From sequence record NC_052659.1: a stretch of 64,000 nucleotides of DNA; one strand, 5' to 3'. Source of the DNA: Escherichia phage nieznany. The notes under the pieces were generated by a model. It saw only the letters and a list, made by a program, of their open reading frames with translations. It was not told the origin of the DNA and searched no databases. This document shows positions 1 through 11,303 of this stretch, piece by piece (position 1 is the first letter of the stretch; each line of letters starts with the position of its first letter). Position numbers and translations under genes: made by a program.

Positions 1-738
1 TTGGAATACGATATTGCTTCTCAAGGAGATAGCACAGAAGCTTTGATTAGTTATTGTGAAGACTCTGATGATATTCGTCGAACTTACGCTGGACACGTTG
101 TTGCTCCTTTAGATGTGCTCTACCTTCTTAAAATGAGTCATCGTTTTAAAAAGGATAGTCCTCACTTCTTTAAAACTATGAAAGATATTCATTTCATGCG
201 ATCACTAGGCGCAAAGATCCCAGAAAATCTTAAGAGTATTTATGAGTTGCGTGAGAAAGAAACATACACTTACTCTCATCCAAACTTAAACGTGAGAAGT
301 AAAGACTTCTTTAAAGGTGATGAGGTTCCGTATGTTTATGATCATGACTCTATTCATGAAGCAATCGCAGTAATGGATGCTCCAGCATATAAATCTTATA
401 TGAAAGATGGAAGTGAAGTTATGACCAGCAAAGAAAAGTTTTTTGCTCAACCAAAACATGTGCGCCTGTTAGGTGTTTATGAAGAAGCGTGTGTTTTGGC
501 TTTGGAACGTTCACAAATTCCTTTCGGTGAAGAGATCGGAGGTCCAACCCCTAAGCAAAGTTTTATGATGGCTTTATCTAAAGTTTGCACATCTATCACT
601 AGTGGTTGGTTTAGGGAATATGCTTGGGAGAACTTTTATATTGTTACTAAACTATATGAAAACATGGGTGAAAACGACTATGTTGAACGTTTTAAAGCTA
701 ATCGACATGTAGTTAAGCCTTTTGAAGGAGGTTATTAA
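1..738 (+). CDS. hypothetical protein (5' end may lie outside window)
   Basis: 245-codon ORF running from window edge; no recognisable motif. Confidence 0.45.
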   Translation: MEYDIASQGDSTEALISYCEDSDDIRRTYAGHVVAPLDVLYLLKMSHRFKKDSPHFFKTMKDIHFMRSLGAKIPENLKSIYELREKETYTYSHPNLNVRSKDFFKGDEVPYVYDHDSIHEAIAVMDAPAYKSYMKDGSEVMTSKEKFFAQPKHVRLLGVYEEACVLALERSQIPFGEEIGGPTPKQSFMMALSKVCTSITSGWFREYAWENFYIVTKLYENMGENDYVERFKANRHVVKPFEGGY

Positions 739-739
739 T

Positions 740-1135
740 ATGTGTGGATATCTTTCAGAAAGTTATTTCAAAGTGACGCATGAGGATTTAGAAAAAGCAC
801 GATTGAAATTGACAGCTATTATTGAATACTCTAATACTGTTGATCACAGATTAAAGACTACTAAAGTATCTGTTCCTTGTTGGTTAGGTTTACGGCATAA
901 AACAATGTCTCAACATGATCATGTTGTTCGAGAGATGCATGGTTGGTGTTGGTTTCACGATGTGGCTTTGCATTTTGGTTATATTACAGAAGAAGAACAT
1001 AGATTCTGTGAACTAACGTATCGTATTCCAACCCTTCACGATCTAGATTTGTGGAAGAAAGCAAACGAGATTTTTCTTACAGAAAGTGATTGGCGTAAAG
1101 TTATGGCTTGTCTTGAATGGAGGGGTAATGAGTAA
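740..1135 (+). CDS. hypothetical protein
   Basis: ATG at 740 preceded by GAAGGAGG; ORF track frame 722..1135. Confidence 0.45.
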   Translation: MCGYLSESYFKVTHEDLEKARLKLTAIIEYSNTVDHRLKTTKVSVPCWLGLRHKTMSQHDHVVREMHGWCWFHDVALHFGYITEEEHRFCELTYRIPTLHDLDLWKKANEIFLTESDWRKVMACLEWRGNE

Positions 1136-1811
1136 AACAGTTTTGTCTATGTTTGACGGATCTGGGATCATGGTGTTACGTTATGCTGAAGCAGGTCACA
1201 AGTGTTTTTGTGTAAACGCTGATGAAGGGGACCACGGTAAATACGAGGTTAGGATGGAGCACCCAAACATAACCTATGTGAATGCTTGGATAGATTCTAC
1301 ATTCAACCCTGAAGATCATGGAATACCTAAACCCGATATTATTTTTGGATTTCCACCTTGCACTATGTTAGCAGGTAGTGGTAGCAAACACGAACGCAGC
1401 ACAGAGGAATTAGATGAAGCTTTAGCTAATATTCGTGTAGTGGAAGCTTTGGGTAACAAATACAATGTTCCTTGGATGATTGAGAACCCAGTAGGTAAAC
1501 TTTCAACCTTATGGCGTAAACCCGATTTTTACTTTGATCCTTATGAGTATGGTGGGTATTTGTTTGAAGAGGAAGGAAGCTTTCATCCTAAAATGCCTAC
1601 CCGCGATGGGTATACAAAGAAAACTTGTATTTGGCACGGGAATGGTTTTGTTCAACCAGTGAAGAAACCAGTAGATCATATAGGCTGCTTCTGGGGTTGG
1701 AAAAGCTTAGGCGGAGCTAGTGCAAAAACAAAACAACTTAGATCACTAACCGCACGTGGTTTTGCTCGTGCAGTGTTTTTGTCTAACAATCTTCTAGATA
1801 AGGAGAAATAA
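1128..1811 (+). CDS. SAM-dependent methyltransferase, DNA cytosine-5 MTase-like (short)
   Basis: Motifs FDGSG (motif I-like), FPPCT (PC motif IV-like), ENP (ENV-like); ATG 1128 after GGAGGG, overlaps upstream stop. Confidence 0.4.
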   Translation: MSKTVLSMFDGSGIMVLRYAEAGHKCFCVNADEGDHGKYEVRMEHPNITYVNAWIDSTFNPEDHGIPKPDIIFGFPPCTMLAGSGSKHERSTEELDEALANIRVVEALGNKYNVPWMIENPVGKLSTLWRKPDFYFDPYEYGGYLFEEEGSFHPKMPTRDGYTKKTCIWHGNGFVQPVKKPVDHIGCFWGWKSLGGASAKTKQLRSLTARGFARAVFLSNNLLDKEK

Positions 1812-2464
1812 TGTCAAATTCCAAACCAGTAGTTGCTTATCAAGTAGATCGTAATGATGGTGAAGGAAGTGTTGTTATTTTCAGTACACACGGTCTTGAG
1901 GCTCGTCGAAAAGGTGCGTATCGTTTAGAATGTGAGTTTGAAGACTGCACAAGCCACCGTGTCAAACAATTTGATCAATATGCAGATAAAGGTTTTGTCC
2001 CTATCAAAGCCTTGCTGGAAGATGGTTGGTGGGTATATTCCGCTTTTGACTACTCAAAGTTGGAGGAGTCAGCTTCGTGCGCATCCGAGATCGAATATGA
2101 TGATTACTATGACACTCTCTACCTTCCAGAATGGCTTGTCTTTTCCCCTGATGAGAGAAGCGTCTGGAAAACTTGGGAAGAAATGGAGAGACATGCATAT
2201 AGCATCAATGAAGCCTTAGATCGTAAAGCTTGGTTTATTGAGGCAGTAAAGGCGGCATACCCTCAATTTTCATTCTGTGATTTCACTGGTGGCCCAGGGT
2301 ACATTACACATACAGCCTCTTTTGAGTTCCCTGGTTCACGTTATAAAGGTAACGTTTATTGGGATTGGGATGAAAATAAACAACCTTCGGCTCAAGACTT
2401 CCGTTGCTATGTTTGCCAAGGTGATCAAGAAGCCCTTGACAAATACCTACAAAGTCTGGTATAG
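1811..2464 (+). CDS. hypothetical protein
   Basis: 217-aa ORF, AAGGAG RBS, start overlaps upstream stop. Confidence 0.5.
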   Translation: MSNSKPVVAYQVDRNDGEGSVVIFSTHGLEARRKGAYRLECEFEDCTSHRVKQFDQYADKGFVPIKALLEDGWWVYSAFDYSKLEESASCASEIEYDDYYDTLYLPEWLVFSPDERSVWKTWEEMERHAYSINEALDRKAWFIEAVKAAYPQFSFCDFTGGPGYITHTASFEFPGSRYKGNVYWDWDENKQPSAQDFRCYVCQGDQEALDKYLQSLV

Positions 2465-2479
2465 TGCCAACATCTGAAC

Positions 2480-2510
2480 AAAGCCTCCTGTTTCAGGGGG
2501 CTTTTCTTTT
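2480..2510 (+). terminator. rho-independent terminator candidate
   Basis: GC hairpin GCCTCCTG..CAGGGGGC followed by TTTTCTTTT. Confidence 0.5.
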
Positions 2511-2522
2511 ATAGGAGGGAAT

Positions 2523-2996
2523 ATGTTTCAAGTAAATGTCAATGTGCATAATAGTTACTCTGATTGTGAGACGTGTGGCTATAATTCATCTAATGTTGTT
2601 CGTATTAGTGGCGATTTAGGAGAAGCTTCTTTTGGAGAAGAAGCAAGTTGCTTTAGTGGTATGGATGCAGAATGGAACGATATTGCACATTGGTTGGTGA
2701 GCAAACTAAAAGAAAAAGAGAAACCATTTCCTACTCTGCTTGATCGTTCTCTTGTAGAAGATGCAGGTAAAGCATATGCAGACTATGCGTATGCAGACGG
2801 GAAATATTTGGAAGATGATAAGGCTAACCATTTGCTTTATGTTTACTATGAAGCTGAATCTGCCTACGATAATTATTATAGCATGTCTAACATCCTACGT
2901 CTGTTTGCAGAGTTTGATATTTATTTCGAAGTAGAATTTTCAGAAGATGATACTTACGAATATGATTCTTATGATCCATTTGAGGAGGACGAATAA
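2523..2996 (+). CDS. acidic hypothetical protein
   Basis: 157-aa ORF after TAGGAGGG RBS; D/E/Y-rich C-terminus. Confidence 0.45.
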   Translation: MFQVNVNVHNSYSDCETCGYNSSNVVRISGDLGEASFGEEASCFSGMDAEWNDIAHWLVSKLKEKEKPFPTLLDRSLVEDAGKAYADYAYADGKYLEDDKANHLLYVYYEAESAYDNYYSMSNILRLFAEFDIYFEVEFSEDDTYEYDSYDPFEEDE

Positions 2997-3796
2997 TGCC
3001 AAGACGTGTATATTTTATTAGTGGTGCGGGACTAAGTGCTGACAGCGGAATCCAAACATTTCGCACAGAAACAGATTCTGGAAAGGCATTATGGGATGAA
3101 TACGATTTAACAGAAGTCTGTGACATTTTCAACTTCCGTGACGGTTATCAGCAAGAACAGGGTATTCCTGATGCTATGGGTGGCTTAGATGTGGAAGGAT
3201 ATAACCTCTACCGTAAAACTCACGACTTCTACAATAAACGTCGCGTGGAATTAGAGAAAGTTGACCCGAATCCAGCACATCTTCAGATTGGAGAATGGTT
3301 CGAAAAATACGGTGCAGAAAGGATTATTAACATTACTACTAACGTTGACGATCTATTAGAACGCGCTGGAATCGATAGAGAAGAAATATTGCACGTTCAT
3401 GGTTTCTTGCCAGAAGTTGTTGTTGATAACAAAATTATCAAAGATGTGGGTTACGCAGCTATTGATGTAGACGATTACAAATATGTGAAGCCTAATGTGG
3501 TGTTTTTTGGTGAGAATGCACCACTCTACACAGACATGTATCACAAACTGGATCAACTAACATCACAAGATATGGTTATCGTTGTAGGCTGCTCTAACCA
3601 AGTAATCAACTTCAACTGGGAACTCTTCCCTGCCCTGAATATTGGGGTTAAGATGGTTGTAGTTAACCCAGGTTTGAATTTTGTAGAACAAACTCTCTAC
3701 GAAGAACGTGGAGTGCTTGTCTACCGAGAGAAAGCAGGAACAGTCTTCAGTGATGAAGGCTTTATCAAAATGGTTGAAGACCATTTAAACAAATAA
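2996..3796 (+). CDS. Sir2-family (sirtuin-like) NAD-dependent protein
   Basis: FISGAGLSADSGIQTFR matches sirtuin GAGIS..GIP.FR NAD-binding motif; NITTNVDDLLERAG..HVHG matches sirtuin N.D.L..AG..LHG region. Confidence 0.65.
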   Translation: MPRRVYFISGAGLSADSGIQTFRTETDSGKALWDEYDLTEVCDIFNFRDGYQQEQGIPDAMGGLDVEGYNLYRKTHDFYNKRRVELEKVDPNPAHLQIGEWFEKYGAERIINITTNVDDLLERAGIDREEILHVHGFLPEVVVDNKIIKDVGYAAIDVDDYKYVKPNVVFFGENAPLYTDMYHKLDQLTSQDMVIVVGCSNQVINFNWELFPALNIGVKMVVVNPGLNFVEQTLYEERGVLVYREKAGTVFSDEGFIKMVEDHLNK

Positions 3797-3839: not shown

Positions 3840-4112
3840 ATGACTGAAGAAATCCGTGATTACTACCTTGCACATTACGTTTACTACTTTGCTAATGCTA
3901 CACAAAAAGGGGAAGGTAATCTTTACTTGGCAACAGGACATGGAACAGGTGTTAGGAAATCAAATATTGATAATGCCTTGGCTCAAGTAGCTGCGGGGCT
4001 AGAAGATAAACTTCAAACACCTGTAGTTGCAGTGATGCAAAATATAAGTTACCTAGCAAGTTGTACTGAAACCGAATTTAACGCATCTGAAACGCAATCT
4101 AACGAAGAATAA
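3840..4112 (+). CDS. hypothetical protein
   Basis: 90-aa ORF after AGGAGAATAAA RBS. Confidence 0.4.
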   Translation: MTEEIRDYYLAHYVYYFANATQKGEGNLYLATGHGTGVRKSNIDNALAQVAAGLEDKLQTPVVAVMQNISYLASCTETEFNASETQSNEE

Positions 4113-4116
4113 AACA

Positions 4117-4148
4117 AAGGCACCCAAGTGGGTGCCTTTTCTATTTTA
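4117..4148. terminator. bidirectional terminator candidate at strand-switch point
   Basis: GGCACCCAAGTGGGTGCC hairpin flanked by A-run and T-run between converging blocks. Confidence 0.5.
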
Positions 4149-7457: not shown

Positions 7458-7520
7458 TTGACTTTTTCAAAAAAGTATGGTACCCTAAACATATGTTTAC
7501 GAGCGATAGCGAGTAGTAGA
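7458..7520 (+). repeat. about 60-bp repeated element (copy 1) with promoter-like TTGACT-N17-TACCCT and conserved CGAGCGATAGCGAGTA box
   Basis: Near-identical to 34420-34480. Confidence 0.45.
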
Positions 7521-7616
7521 TTTCTATATAATAATGTTTCATGTTACTCACGATAGTGAGGTATGAAACGTAAGTGAAGGTAGATAAACTATGATCATCT
7601 ATCTACCATCTATTAA

Positions 7617-7826
7617 TCAATATAGATCTAATGTTAGACTAACAGTTATCCAACAAACAATAGCAGTCCATATAACAAGTAATGATCTACAAACTACATC
7701 CCATTCGAATACATTGTATGTTAACCATTCTCCCATCACAACACAAGAACCTAACCAACATCCGACAATAACTATAATCCAATAAAAGAATCCTACAGTA
7801 GAGTATACAGCAAAAGCTTTTAACAT
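7617..7826 (-). CDS. small membrane protein
   Basis: 69 aa, hydrophobic segments; ATG overlaps upstream reading frame. Confidence 0.4.
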   Translation of the reverse strand: MLKAFAVYSTVGFFYWIIVIVGCWLGSCVVMGEWLTYNVFEWDVVCRSLLVIWTAIVCWITVSLTLDLY

Positions 7827-8239
7827 CTTTCCTCCAGAAGTTGTTCAACAGTTTGACGAGTATGATTGTCCCAGTAAACCTTAGTGAAGTCAAGAGTTCC
7901 TTGTTCGTTTCTCTTAGTTTCGAAGAAGTATCCGCCTTCTCTTTCTACTCTGTCTCTAATGTGCTCTATGAGGTGCTTTTTACAAGATGCTGATAAACAA
8001 TAGTCATACTCCCCACGAAGTAACGCTATAGCTGCAAGTCTGTTATCACCAACTTAAGATATTGTCCAAGAAAGCATACTACCTTCTATACCTAAAGGTG
8101 TTTGTCGAATGGAATATCCACCATGCCGACTGATAGAAATTATGGCAAGTGGTTCTCCTGTTAGAGATCTTCCTAATGCACCTTCTGTTGGACTTCCTTC
8201 AACAATACGTTTGAAAAAAGCTTTGATCTTACCTAACAT
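7820..8239 (-). pseudogene. reading frame interrupted by in-frame TAA (61 codons + TAA + 76 codons); pseudogene or readthrough candidate
   Basis: ORF 8054..8239 and a start-less 76-codon ORF (stop 7820-7822) are in the same frame separated only by TAA at 8054-8056. Confidence 0.35.
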
Positions 8240-8256
8240 AAGTCCCCCTTAAAAAC

Positions 8257-8391
8257 TTACTTGTTTAAAGTATCTCTTACTTGTTCTGCTTGACGTTTAG
8301 TAATAAAAGTCCCAACCGAAACGTTAAACTCATTGACTACAGAGAACGATCCATCACGGTTCTCACGAATATTAAACAATTTCTTACTCAT
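8257..8391 (-). CDS. small protein (44 aa)
   Basis: ATG preceded by GGAGGAGGTAGAA on minus strand; not in ORF track (<60 aa). Confidence 0.4.
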   Translation of the reverse strand: MSKKLFNIRENRDGSFSVVNEFNVSVGTFITKRQAEQVRDTLNK

Positions 8392-8587
8392 TTCTACCTC
8401 CTCCGATGCTTTGTGCCGTACCATCCCAAGCCATTAGAATATTTGCCAATAGTTCACGAGGCTCTTTAAACCAAACTTCCATTTCATCAAGAATCTCGTC
8501 CGTGTCGTAAGTATAACCTGGAACACCAAGTTCACATTTCTTAAGATAGCTTTCTAACCAGCGGTGATAATTCTTAACCCCATTCAT
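8384..8587 (-). CDS. hypothetical protein
   Basis: 67-aa ORF, start overlaps upstream stop. Confidence 0.35.
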   Translation of the reverse strand: MNGVKNYHRWLESYLKKCELGVPGYTYDTDEILDEMEVWFKEPRELLANILMAWDGTAQSIGGGRNE

Positions 8588-8960
8588 ACTGTGCTACCTT
8601 TTCTTTTACCCAATCTACACGATCTTTATCATAATGTTGAGTGCCAAGGAAAAGACCATTGTGGAAACTTTCCTCACCGAAAGGATAAATCGGATCTAAA
8701 CCATCTTCTTCAAATAACATTTTTAGTCTCTGTGATGTAGATTTCTTAGTTTCTGAGTTGTAGCTTGTGGTTATAAGCCAATCTTCCAAACAACGACACA
8801 AACCTTGACGAGAATCCCAAGGAAAAACACAATCTCCGACAGGAGCTTGTTCAGCCCATTTCAACCAGCCTTTAAAAAAGTTATACAGTATGTAGTCTTC
8901 AGTGTAATACATTATCTCCTCCTTTACGTATACAATAACACCCCGAAGAACGGGGTGCAA
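8574..8960 (-). CDS. hypothetical protein
   Basis: 128-aa ORF with GGAGGAG RBS. Confidence 0.5.
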   Translation of the reverse strand: MHPVLRGVIVYVKEEIMYYTEDYILYNFFKGWLKWAEQAPVGDCVFPWDSRQGLCRCLEDWLITTSYNSETKKSTSQRLKMLFEEDGLDPIYPFGEESFHNGLFLGTQHYDKDRVDWVKEKVAQYEWG

Positions 8961-8963
8961 CTG

Positions 8964-9575
8964 TTATTTAATCTGTTTGAAAATTTCGTTTGGAACGGTA
9001 CCGTTTAAAATACCTTCTACGATCTCCTGTGCAGATGTGTAAGAGAGTCCAAAAGAAGCTACGCCTAAAATTGCCTCCTTCAAAGGATCTGGCAGGGGTT
9101 CAAAATTACCTGCAACAAAGCCACCTGCACAAGCAGCGCCTTCATCATCCCAGAAAACAACTGCTACATCGTTACCATGCGAAGTTGTGCGATGTGCAAT
9201 AACTTCAACTTCGGTGCCTTCTTTAGGAACAGAATAAGAACTGTCCCAAGAATATCTTTCCAAATCAGGAACAAAGATAACCTTTTCACCTACTGGCGGC
9301 AGTTCACAACGATAATACCAAGAATTTTTTTCGTTCATTGTTTTATTTTCCTCCACGTCTTCAAAAGTAACGATCCAATCGTAGCCGTAAGAAAACGGAT
9401 ATTTTAGATCTAAAGAATAAGTTTGACCTAGATCGTCCTCAACAAGAACCATCCTGTCAAAGTTTGCGATGTTAGGATTATGTTTAATGATAGGGTATGT
9501 TTCCCCTACAGTAAATTGTCCCAAATGGTAAAGTTCATCTCTCCAAGTAATTTGGATATGAGTGCATTGAATCAT
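8964..9575 (-). CDS. hypothetical protein
   Basis: 203-aa ORF. Confidence 0.5.
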   Translation of the reverse strand: MIQCTHIQITWRDELYHLGQFTVGETYPIIKHNPNIANFDRMVLVEDDLGQTYSLDLKYPFSYGYDWIVTFEDVEENKTMNEKNSWYYRCELPPVGEKVIFVPDLERYSWDSSYSVPKEGTEVEVIAHRTTSHGNDVAVVFWDDEGAACAGGFVAGNFEPLPDPLKEAILGVASFGLSYTSAQEIVEGILNGTVPNEIFKQIK

Positions 9576-9579
9576 AAAA

Positions 9580-9852
9580 TCACCCCCAAGAAATATTTAT
9601 ATATCTTACAATGTTTGCACTGTCTAAAGCCATGTTTGCACCACACCCACGCTCGCGCCAGTAACTAACAATACCTTCACAGATACTTTCTTGTATCTTC
9701 TTATCACTTGGCATTTCTAGTATAAGACTTGGGTTGTGGATGTTTATGTTATAATATCCTTCCTCTGCGGCTTGAGCTACCAATTTACTTACTTTTTCAA
9801 AGTACGGGGAATTAGTGGCATCTGCCATTGTTTTTAAGGTTTGTCTATCCAT
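9580..9852 (-). CDS. hypothetical protein
   Basis: 90-aa ORF. Confidence 0.45.
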   Translation of the reverse strand: MDRQTLKTMADATNSPYFEKVSKLVAQAAEEGYYNINIHNPSLILEMPSDKKIQESICEGIVSYWRERGCGANMALDSANIVRYINISWG

Positions 9853-10250
9853 TATTCTGCCTCATCATAGAAGAAATCCAACTCTTGTTCCAGTTGTTTA
9901 ACTCGATCCTTAACCCACTGTACACGTTTTTCATTAAACATGCAACGTTTTTCCTTACACTCTTGCTCAAAAGATTTTGCTGTGTTAAATGGGAAAGTTG
10001 TATCTAAGCCAGCGTTTTCAAAACTGGCTAATTGCATACCATAAACAGAATATGCTAAAGAATGATCGGCTCGAAATTCATCACTTATATACATACGTAG
10101 ACCTCGGCATAAGCCAACATCAGCGTAACCACTTTCTCGTGGAAAGAGACGGAGGTGTTCTAACCAATTATTATAGAAATCTAAAAGAATCCTTTTACAC
10201 TTCAAATCAATTGTCATAAAAAGTTTCTCCTTCGTCGAACAAGTTGGCAA
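9852..10250 (-). CDS. hypothetical protein
   Basis: 132-aa ORF, stop/start overlap with neighbours. Confidence 0.5.
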   Translation of the reverse strand: MPTCSTKEKLFMTIDLKCKRILLDFYNNWLEHLRLFPRESGYADVGLCRGLRMYISDEFRADHSLAYSVYGMQLASFENAGLDTTFPFNTAKSFEQECKEKRCMFNEKRVQWVKDRVKQLEQELDFFYDEAE

Positions 10251-10617
10251 GATTGTTCACGGCAATCTGCGTGGAAAGAAGACAACTGTTTGCAGACACA
10301 TAAGCACGAGCTATTTTGTAAACATAGGCTTTCGTATTACAATTGTCCAGGATCGGAAGACTTTCGTCGATAGCATCTATAACACTAAACATCACATCTA
10401 AAACTTTAATGGTGAGTGTTGTATTTGTATCTTCGTAACCTTTTTCAATCCGACCTGAATAGAAAGCATAGTCCTCAACAGTTCGTCGTTTAAACTGCCG
10501 CATAAAATCGGAACCATCTGTAGCAGAATTGAACAAATTTTCAAAAAATACGTCCCATCCGGCAAAAAGGGCTGACAGCATGATTAAGTGATCTACAGAT
10601 TCATTTTCTTGTTTCAT
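10207..10617 (-). CDS. hypothetical protein
   Basis: 136-aa ORF. Confidence 0.5.
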   Translation of the reverse strand: MKQENESVDHLIMLSALFAGWDVFFENLFNSATDGSDFMRQFKRRTVEDYAFYSGRIEKGYEDTNTTLTIKVLDVMFSVIDAIDESLPILDNCNTKAYVYKIARAYVSANSCLLSTQIAVNNLANLFDEGETFYDN

Positions 10618-10625
10618 ATCCTCTC

Positions 10626-11303
10626 CTATTTAATGTTAAGTCTGGCACACAAACGAGAAACAGTTTTAGCATCCCATTTACCACCACGTGCTGTTGCTAT
10701 TTTCTTACTATTGAATTTTTCAGCAATAGTTTTGTAAGGTGTATTTAAATCTCTAAGGATCTCCAAGCGTTCACGGAATGTCTCTGCAAAAGCGTCTGCT
10801 TTAACAGAGTTGTATTCCATTTTTCCTTTTCTACGTGCAGCGGCAGTTTTAGGATTAGCACTACCTAATAAAACACCTTTACTTTTTGCTACAGCAAGAC
10901 CCTTTTTAATGCGATCAGCAATGCCTCTAACTTCTTGTTCAGCCAGAACAGATAGAAGTTGTATAACCATTTTATCTGCGTCTGGCATGATGGCTATCTT
11001 AACATCGATCATTTCTAGAAGAGTTGCTACGGAGGCGTTGTTACGACCCAAGCGGTCAACTTTAGCTACCAATAAAGTTGCTCCGGTAGCTTTACACATT
11101 TCAACCGCTTTAACCAGTTCCTTACGTTGCTTCCAATCGCCCTTACCCGAATAGTATTCAGAAAATTGACCAATAACTTCAGCATCAGGCACAGAGTCTA
11201 AGAAGTAACGGATATCGTTCTCTTGGCTCTCCATACCATATTGTGCCTCACCTTTTTTCTGTTTAGAAAGACGACTGTAAACAACAAACTTTTTCATAAC
11301 CAC
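10626..11303 (-). CDS. serine recombinase (resolvase/invertase family)
   Basis: N-terminal VVYSRLSKQ (catalytic Ser region), LLVAKVDRLGRN and LAEQEVRGIADRIKKGLAVAKSKG match resolvase/invertase conserved blocks; C-terminal HTH-like tail. Confidence 0.65.
   Translation of the reverse strand: MVMKKFVVYSRLSKQKKGEAQYGMESQENDIRYFLDSVPDAEVIGQFSEYYSGKGDWKQRKELVKAVEMCKATGATLLVAKVDRLGRNNASVATLLEMIDVKIAIMPDADKMVIQLLSVLAEQEVRGIADRIKKGLAVAKSKGVLLGSANPKTAAARRKGKMEYNSVKADAFAETFRERLEILRDLNTPYKTIAEKFNSKKIATARGGKWDAKTVSRLCARLNIK

Follow-up and report, generated by a model that had tools for sequence, protein, structure and literature searches.

The open reading frame (ORF) at positions 1128–1811 of a 64,000-nucleotide stretch of DNA from Escherichia phage nieznany (NC_052659.1; this whole stretch is referred to here as the window) encodes a protein of 227 residues which, with a probability that we would put at roughly 0.8, is an active, orphan, S-adenosylmethionine (SAM)-dependent cytosine-5 methyltransferase acting on DNA (C5-MTase), of the compact, Dcm-like phage family gathered in PHROG 757. 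The gene has been annotated before and belongs to a known phage family which is very common and one relative of which has been studied by experiment; the copy in phage ukendt appears as "DNA methyltransferase" in RefSeq and as "Dcm" in GenBank, and the copy is named "hypothetical protein" in many other records. An earlier note on this DNA had pointed out in the ORF the motifs FDGSG, PPCT and ENP, in the order of C5-MTase motifs I, IV and VI, and they are indeed there, at residues 9–13, 76–79 and 119–121. It had left three options for the product, of which a minimal DNA methyltransferase is the one supported, through the 50%-identical Dcm of phages K42 and KarlJaspers; an inactive derivative is unlikely, because the catalytic residues are invariant across the family, and for a base-modifying enzyme with another substrate nothing was found in support.

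Relation to an Experimentally Studied Enzyme

Phage K42, 95% identical to KarlJaspers (Bas06), has been studied through its escapers from the retron Ec86 (bioRxiv 10.1101/2023.08.16.553469, later Cell Rep 2024;43:114857), and in four of four escapers the lesions fell within a dcm gene of 711 bp or immediately before it on the upstream side. Expressed alone, this gene was toxic to retron-bearing cells only, and the 5-methylcytosine (5mC) content of the purified multicopy single-stranded DNA (msDNA) rose, as seen by liquid chromatography with mass spectrometry (LC-MS); the C82A/E128A/K175A/K176A mutant gave neither the toxicity nor the rise in 5mC, and the defense was lost once the cytosines of CCTGG in the stem of the msDNA had been changed (bioRxiv 10.1101/2023.08.16.553469).

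The corresponding gene of KarlJaspers (MZ501090), bas06_0055, is also of 711 bp and encodes 236 residues, with C82, E128, K175 and K176 at the exact positions that they occupy in K42 Dcm. The window protein aligns with it by BLASTP from end to end at 50% identity (E = 1e-71; query 5–220 on subject 6–234), in such a way that C78, E119, K164 and K165 fall on C82, E128, K175 and K176 of K42 Dcm. The formation of 5mC in vivo has been shown for this 50%-identical homologue only; what we infer for the window protein is its activity, its target motif and its biological role. In literature searches, neither a mapped specificity nor a solved structure was found for the compact family.

Family Size and Conservation

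The profile phrog_757 ("DNA methyltransferase") matches residues 1–225 of the protein with positions 13–223 of its 247 (E = 1.8e-84), and a tblastn search detects homologues in 1,486 out of 50,697 phage records, 1,465 of which match over 80% or more of the query; they come mainly from phages of Escherichia, Klebsiella, Salmonella and Shigella that belong to several unrelated lineages. The protein collections yield 870 clusters when grouped at 90% identity, and the 120 listed are all of 210–267 residues; grouped at 50% identity they yield 1,886 representatives at E ≤ 1e-3, of which 784 have E ≤ 1e-10, and among the 1,886 the best 150 have a median length of 230 residues, 106 falling between 200 and 265. 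The earlier note had described the protein as far shorter than typical enzymes and devoid of an obvious target-recognition domain (TRD), and so it is, given that only 33 residues separate the motif-VIII-like strand from the C-terminal helix; since nearly all members have 200–265 residues, the shortness is a stable trait of a large family and not a truncation of the window copy.

Conservation was assessed in an alignment of 84 family representatives which are only 30–57% identical to the query. The invariant residues are Cys78, Glu119, Pro121, Pro138, Tyr162, Lys164, Thr166, Trp169 and Pro177, while Gly23, Phe75, Pro76, Thr79, Gly85, Asn120, Arg205, Ser206, Gly211 and Ala215 are conserved in at least 90% of the representatives; the same level is reached at position 30, which is Asp in most members and Asn in the window protein, and at position 209, Pro in most members and Ala in the window protein. 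The motifs are therefore not a product of chance, in view of the invariance of Cys78, Glu119 and Pro121, of their canonical-like spacing and of the strength of the match to PHROG 757.

The same data bear on the idea that the protein has lost its catalysis and is a relic, or else that it binds without being an enzyme (as a decoy for SAM or DNA) and has been kept for another purpose. The sequence is certainly highly divergent, below every curated model threshold, it lacks the canonical arginines of motif VIII, and phage C5-MTases with disrupted motifs VIII–X were inactive in the work of Burke et al. (PMC8256090); but the Cys, the Glu and the YxKxT strand remain invariant in the 84 representatives of a family of some 1,900 clusters, which is typical of an active enzyme, and in the K42 homologue, with the same set of motifs, the effect depends on precisely those residues, so that we regard this as the least probable of the alternatives considered here.

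Predicted Fold and the Question of the Substrate

The AlphaFold2 model, made with 121 family sequences, has a mean predicted local distance difference test score (pLDDT) of 87.9 and a predicted TM-score (pTM) of 0.87, and the only stretch below a pLDDT of 50 is that of residues 82–87, in the loop after the catalytic Cys. When the model was compared with the PDB by Foldseek, the 50 best matches listed were all DNMT3A/3B or M.HaeIII (E from 6e-8 to 7e-6), and among the viral models the first were proteins of the same family named cytosine methylases, followed by canonical C5-MTases. The window protein is thus predicted to have the fold of a C5-MTase catalytic domain; the earlier note had staked its reading on a SAM-dependent methyltransferase fold, and it is such a fold that structure prediction returns.

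A fold of this type could, in principle, act on something other than DNA, or transfer something other than a methyl group: the substrate could be RNA or tRNA, as for DNMT2-like enzymes, or free deoxycytidine nucleotides, or the group could be a carboxymethyl taken from carboxy-S-adenosylmethionine (Cx-SAM), as in CmoX. We consider this quite improbable. With regard to RNA, DNA methyltransferases rank above DNMT2 in both fold searches, and the homologues reside within DNA-replication modules; in favor of another substrate or group, the protein is without a TRD-sized domain, and its motifs VIII and X are non-canonical. With regard to free nucleotides, the LC-MS analysis of K42 sought 5mC only, and a methylated nucleotide pool could in principle also have raised the 5mC of msDNA, but 5mC was the product detected for the homologue and the changes in the CCTGG cytosines abolished the defense, which points to a site-directed action on DNA. 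As for the carboxymethyl group, Cx-SAM is made in E. coli, whose CmoA is able to provide it to a CmoX of foreign origin (PMC12783734); against such chemistry, the window protein has FPPC and not SPPC, and neither CmoA nor ligase neighbors were annotated or detected near the window gene.

Points that Weigh Against the Assignment

A number of observations count against an active DNA C5-MTase, and they are of four kinds: (i) the searches by sequence, in which the Pfam profile PF00145, proposed as a check by the earlier note, falls below its gathering cut-off (11.6 against 22 bits, with E = 0.18 and a match confined to the N-terminal 89 residues), the NCBIfam scan gives no match, the family profiles find no significant C5-MTase among the PDB sequences (DNMT2 at E = 0.54), and hhalign of the family with E. 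coli Dcm gives a probability of less than 2%, even though PPCT/PCQ and ENP/ENV pair at the right spacing; (ii) the departures from the canonical motifs, since the strand at the place of motif VIII does not read QxRxR but Y162-T-K164-K165-T166, without arginines, since no motif X (FGNxV or GNxVP) can be recognized in the window protein, and since in place of a TRD-sized domain there are only 33 residues (172–204), which form no separate domain in the model; (iii) the limits of the comparison with K42, with an identity to the tested enzyme of only 50%, with a CCWGG specificity that the preprint took from the name "Dcm", there being no genome-wide map, and with tests run in dcm+ MG1655, where the msDNA of the empty-vector control was nevertheless low in 5mC despite the CCTGG of its stem (bioRxiv 10.1101/2023.08.16.553469); (iv) and finally, the BASEL study, in which the Vequintavirinae and their relatives, among them relatives of the present phage group, are described as exceptionally sensitive to restriction-modification systems.

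With respect to the first, the scan with PF00145 member by member reaches E < 0.01 in just 1 of the 84 family members, and phmmer against the PDB sequences finds M.HaeIII with a non-significant E of 0.08, in an alignment of the N-terminal 83 residues where motifs I and IV are locally convincing. Given that PF00145, NCBIfam, the PDB profile searches and hhalign are all without statistical support, the family is a very divergent branch of the C5-MTases which the curated models have overlooked, and its link to them rests on the fold, the motifs and the tested homologue, not on sequence statistics. The low 5mC of the empty-vector msDNA means either that host Dcm is inactive on msDNA or that the phage enzyme differs from it in target or efficiency. 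With respect to the BASEL results, methyltransferase genes had no simple relation to restriction resistance in the Drexlerviridae either, and from the exceptional sensitivity of the Vequintavirinae and relatives it follows that any protection given by the methyltransferase must be narrow.

Anatomy of the Protein and a Putative Mechanism

In the predicted structure of the window protein, strand 1 (residues 4–8) leads into motif I, FDGSG (9–13; 1152–1166, +), which forms the SAM-binding loop and aligns with FSGAG of M.HaeIII, the consensus of the wider family being FDxxG. Strand 2 (25–30) ends at Asn30, the position that is Asp in most members, and is followed by strand 3 (48–52) and by strand 4 (71–74), which runs into motif IV, FPPCT (75–79; 1350–1364, +), with the invariant catalytic Cys78, equivalent to C82 of K42 Dcm; this motif aligns with PPCQ of M.HaeIII and PCQ of E. 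coli Dcm. A flexible loop (80–91) and a long helix (92–111) then precede strand 5 (116–121), which closes with motif VI, ENP (119–121; 1482–1490, +), where Glu119 corresponds to E128 of K42 Dcm and the motif to ENV of E. coli Dcm. The spacing from Cys78 to Glu119, of 41 residues, is close to that from PCQ to ENV in the alignment of E. coli Dcm.

A conserved insertion (134–161) separates this half from the motif-VIII-like strand YTKKTCIWHG (162–171; 1611–1640, +), in which Y162, K164, T166 and W169 are invariant, the pair K164/K165 is equivalent to K175/K176 of K42 Dcm, and the strand as modelled takes up residues 166–171. The 33-residue insert (172–204; 1641–1739, +), delimited from the per-column conservation, stands at the position of the canonical TRD and differs from that of the Bas06 enzyme; within it, residues 183–193 show the lowest conservation in the family and are unrelated between the window protein and the KarlJaspers enzyme. 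The C-terminal signature RSLTARGFARAVF (205–217; 1740–1778, +), with a family consensus RS-x-TPRGFA-x-AVF, forms the last helix (210–219, pLDDT of about 98), and together with the motif VIII strand, with which it is about level, makes up the two most conserved stretches of the family. By eye, RSLTARGFARAVF resembles canonical motif IX, which is RRLTPRECARLMGF in Dcm; the equivalence was considered and then dropped, as the family profile matches the C-terminus of E. coli Dcm only at "TPR" and 16.5% of 2,000 shuffles score as well, that is, the resemblance does not exceed what chance would give.

If the protein works like others of the C5-MTase superfamily, SAM would be held by the FDGSG loop together with the acidic residue that ends strand 2 (Asp in most members, Asn30 here), and the target cytosine would be flipped out of the duplex DNA; Cys78 of PPCT would attack C6 while Glu119 of ENP and the basic residues of YTKKT held the base, and the methyl group would then be passed to C5. 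Sequence recognition would come from the 172–204 insert and the 134–161 insertion, possibly with the help of an oligomerization such as that of DNMT3A/3B. If the loop of residues 183–193 reads the DNA, the target motif need not match that of the KarlJaspers enzyme. In this way phage DNA would be methylated at a short motif and host restriction blunted, and, as a side effect, the methylation could be sensed by an immunity of the retron Ec86/Eco1 type.

More tentatively, and as something that we would sooner doubt than assert, the family could represent a minimal C5-MTase architecture, in which a loop of some 33 residues would read the motif, perhaps within a DNMT3-like dimer, motif IX or X would have been fused or lost, and residues 183–193 would set the targets of the different subfamilies, with the Phapecoctavirus target being other than CCWGG. 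If this were true, the family would offer a scaffold of 227 residues for engineered cytosine methylation.

Gene, Neighborhood and the Idea of a Partner

The coding sequence of the compact Dcm-like methyltransferase (1128–1811, +; 227 residues, from the ORF list and the sequence) has an ATG start and a TAA stop at 1809–1811. The Shine-Dalgarno-like GGAGGGG at 1119–1125 (+), read from the sequence, precedes the ATG and lies within the 3′ end of the upstream ORF; the start at 1128 is matched by the gene model of the 97.9%-identical phage ukendt (RefSeq NC_052661; 4128–4811 there), and is backed by an N-terminus that is the same in the homologues. A longer reading from a GTG at 1086 was rejected, as neither the homologues nor the RefSeq gene model of ukendt support it.

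The gene stands second in a close succession of three overlapping ORFs, all on the plus strand (740–1135, 1128–1811 and 1811–2464). The first (phrog_16551, of unknown function) overlaps the start of the methyltransferase by 8 nucleotides, and the ATG of the third, preceded by AAGGAG at 1800–1805, overlaps its stop by 1 nucleotide (TAATG, 1809–1813), and because of these overlaps of 8 and 1 nucleotides a translational coupling of the methyltransferase gene is suggested.

So close an arrangement invites the thought that the protein might be just the catalytic subunit of a two-part enzyme, in which a partner, for example the 217-residue product of ORF 1811–2464, would supply the target recognition or the motif-X helix. 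Split C5-MTases such as M.AquI provide a precedent for an enzyme in two parts, the methyltransferase itself has no TRD and no recognizable motif X, and the third ORF belongs to phrog_8514, also of unknown function. Nonetheless, the K42 homologue, alone on a plasmid, was enough for the rise in 5mC and the triggering of the retron, the protein modelled by itself is compact and of high confidence, and the family neighbors differ completely between phage groups: in KarlJaspers the homologue is near a helicase and small hypothetical genes, in GAP31 and the rV5-like phages it has a helicase on one side and a primase/helicase on the other, and in D6 it adjoins a gene that resembles the C-terminal half of P1 dmt. 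As the neighbors are not conserved across phage groups, ORF 1811–2464 was rejected as the partner subunit, and a two-part enzyme in general seems to us very improbable.

A methyltransferase that works alone, on the other hand, agrees with the context of the gene, since annotation and profile scans of the neighbors revealed no restriction endonuclease-like gene and no conserved partner beside it, and since the neighbors, usually replication genes, change from one phage group to another; this is the pattern of an orphan methyltransferase travelling alone. In Escherichia phage D6 (NC_050154; P1-like), the family member (226 residues, 32% identical) comes directly before, and overlaps, the gene similar only to the C-terminal half of P1 dmt (both within 1471–3049), so that the place held in P1 by the N-terminal half of a fused methyltransferase seems to be taken in D6 by the compact enzyme. 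In two BFVD models of large proteins from uncultured Caudovirales, A0A6J5SE15_1 (1397 residues) and A0A6J5NPY6_2 (1126 residues), the compact fold makes up one domain (25–27% identity; TM-score of 0.62–0.66, normalized to the query), and one of these two proteins is annotated "Helicase/UvrB, N-terminal"; fusions to helicase-like proteins may hint at how the methyltransferase module reaches DNA.

Beyond the third ORF there are a terminator-like hairpin (2480–2504) and a promoter-like site (2436–2465: TTGACA, an 18-nucleotide spacer, TATAGT), and a further neighbor belongs to phrog_9509, of unknown function. Two genes downstream of the methyltransferase, at 2996–3796 (+), a Sir2-family protein of 266 residues is encoded (PF02146, E = 1.4e-20; phrog_2162, E = 1e-96), which in relatives is labelled an NAD-dependent deacylase. 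On the other side, 1–738 (+) codes for the C-terminal region of a protein with DUF7275 (PF23940, E = 3.4e-76; phrog_2141), cut off by the left edge of the window. At 4116–4139, where the plus-strand genes (ending at 4112) meet the minus-strand genes (from 4182), there is a perfect hairpin with a 10-bp stem (AAAGGCACCC...GGGTGCCTTT) and T-runs on both strands, which looks like a bidirectional terminator.

The window comes from a Phapecoctavirus (phAPEC8-like) coliphage of the subfamily Stephanstirmvirinae; over its first 6 kb it shares 98.9% identity with Escherichia phage KKP 3954 and 93–98% with phAPEC8, ukendt, ZCKP1 and further phages of the genus, and proteins 100% identical to the methyltransferase are encoded by phages BI-EHEC and Ro121c4YLVW. 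Upstream of the methyltransferase, the relatives have an extended block of genes for nucleotide metabolism, which in KKP 3954 includes a set for the biosynthesis of dTDP-rhamnose (rmlA-D-like; 7506–10786), on the same strand as the methyltransferase and some 10 kb upstream of it. Olsen et al. speculated that the dTDP-rhamnose genes could serve DNA glycosylation; no hydroxylase or glycosyltransferase link to the methyltransferase was noticed.

Restriction Sites and Significance of the Family

The counts of short sites in the window (1–64000) were compared with a maximal-order Markov expectation. CCWGG is found at expectation (88 observed, 87.3 expected), as are GATC, GCGC, CGCG and TGCA, whereas CCGG (22 against 64 expected, a ratio of 0.34), GGCC (32 against 76.5; 0.42) and GTAC (67 against 190; 0.35) are strongly avoided, as are CTGCAG (0 against 10.3), CCSGG (0 against 8.8) and RCCGGY (1 against 6.0). 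This looks like an avoidance of restriction sites that spares the sites of host Dam and Dcm, and the count of CCWGG fits with a CCWGG that is harmless to the phage, although host Dcm would give the same picture. As E. coli hosts methylate CCWGG in any case, the site counts are uninformative as to the target of the phage enzyme, and were discarded as a means of deducing it.

The family matters, in the first place, because a cytosine methylase carried by a phage can change which restriction systems that phage escapes; and in the K42 homologue the same enzyme exposes the phage to the abortive infection of retron Ec86/Eco1. Many of the 1,486 records with a homologue correspond to phages of Escherichia, Klebsiella and Salmonella, including groups considered for therapy, and the real target motif of each subfamily would help to predict host range. 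Moreover, the family illustrates from nature how small a C5-MTase can be and still work.

Comparison with Known Systems

Of the systems with which the window protein can be compared, the Dcm of K42 and KarlJaspers is of the same family and length class, has the same catalytic and substrate-binding residues and the same C-terminal RSLTPRGFARAVF signature, and is likewise encoded by a stand-alone gene. It differs in belonging to a siphovirus of the Drexlerviridae and not to a Phapecoctavirus myovirus, in its gene neighborhood, and in the most variable stretches (145–160 and 176–195 of the window protein), which are unrelated in sequence, and therefore neither the target motif nor the triggering of the retron can simply be transferred from K42 Dcm.

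DNMT3A and DNMT3B are C5-MTases with an unusually small recognition loop instead of a large TRD. Unlike the window protein, their catalytic domains (PDB 6u8p, 8eih, 6f57), to which its identity is only 14–20%, have about 280 residues and keep canonical motifs VIII–X, and they function as DNMT3–DNMT3L or homo-oligomers within large, multidomain eukaryotic proteins.

With the canonical type II C5-MTases (E. coli Dcm, of 472 residues; M.HhaI, of 327; M.HaeIII) the window protein has in common that motifs I, IV and VI follow one another in the same order and at the same spacing. It departs from them in having PPCT for PCQ, ENP for ENV and YTKKT for QxRxR, in having 33 residues where E. coli Dcm has about 110 from QHRER to RRLTPRE, and in being about 100–250 residues shorter.

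Finally, CmoX (PDB 8yf3), a phage DNA cytosine C5-carboxymethyltransferase, has SPPC and a carboxymethyl-binding Arg350, with linked genes for CmoA and an amide ligase (PMC12783734); at 372 residues and with SPPC, it stands apart from the 227 residues and the FPPC of the window protein.

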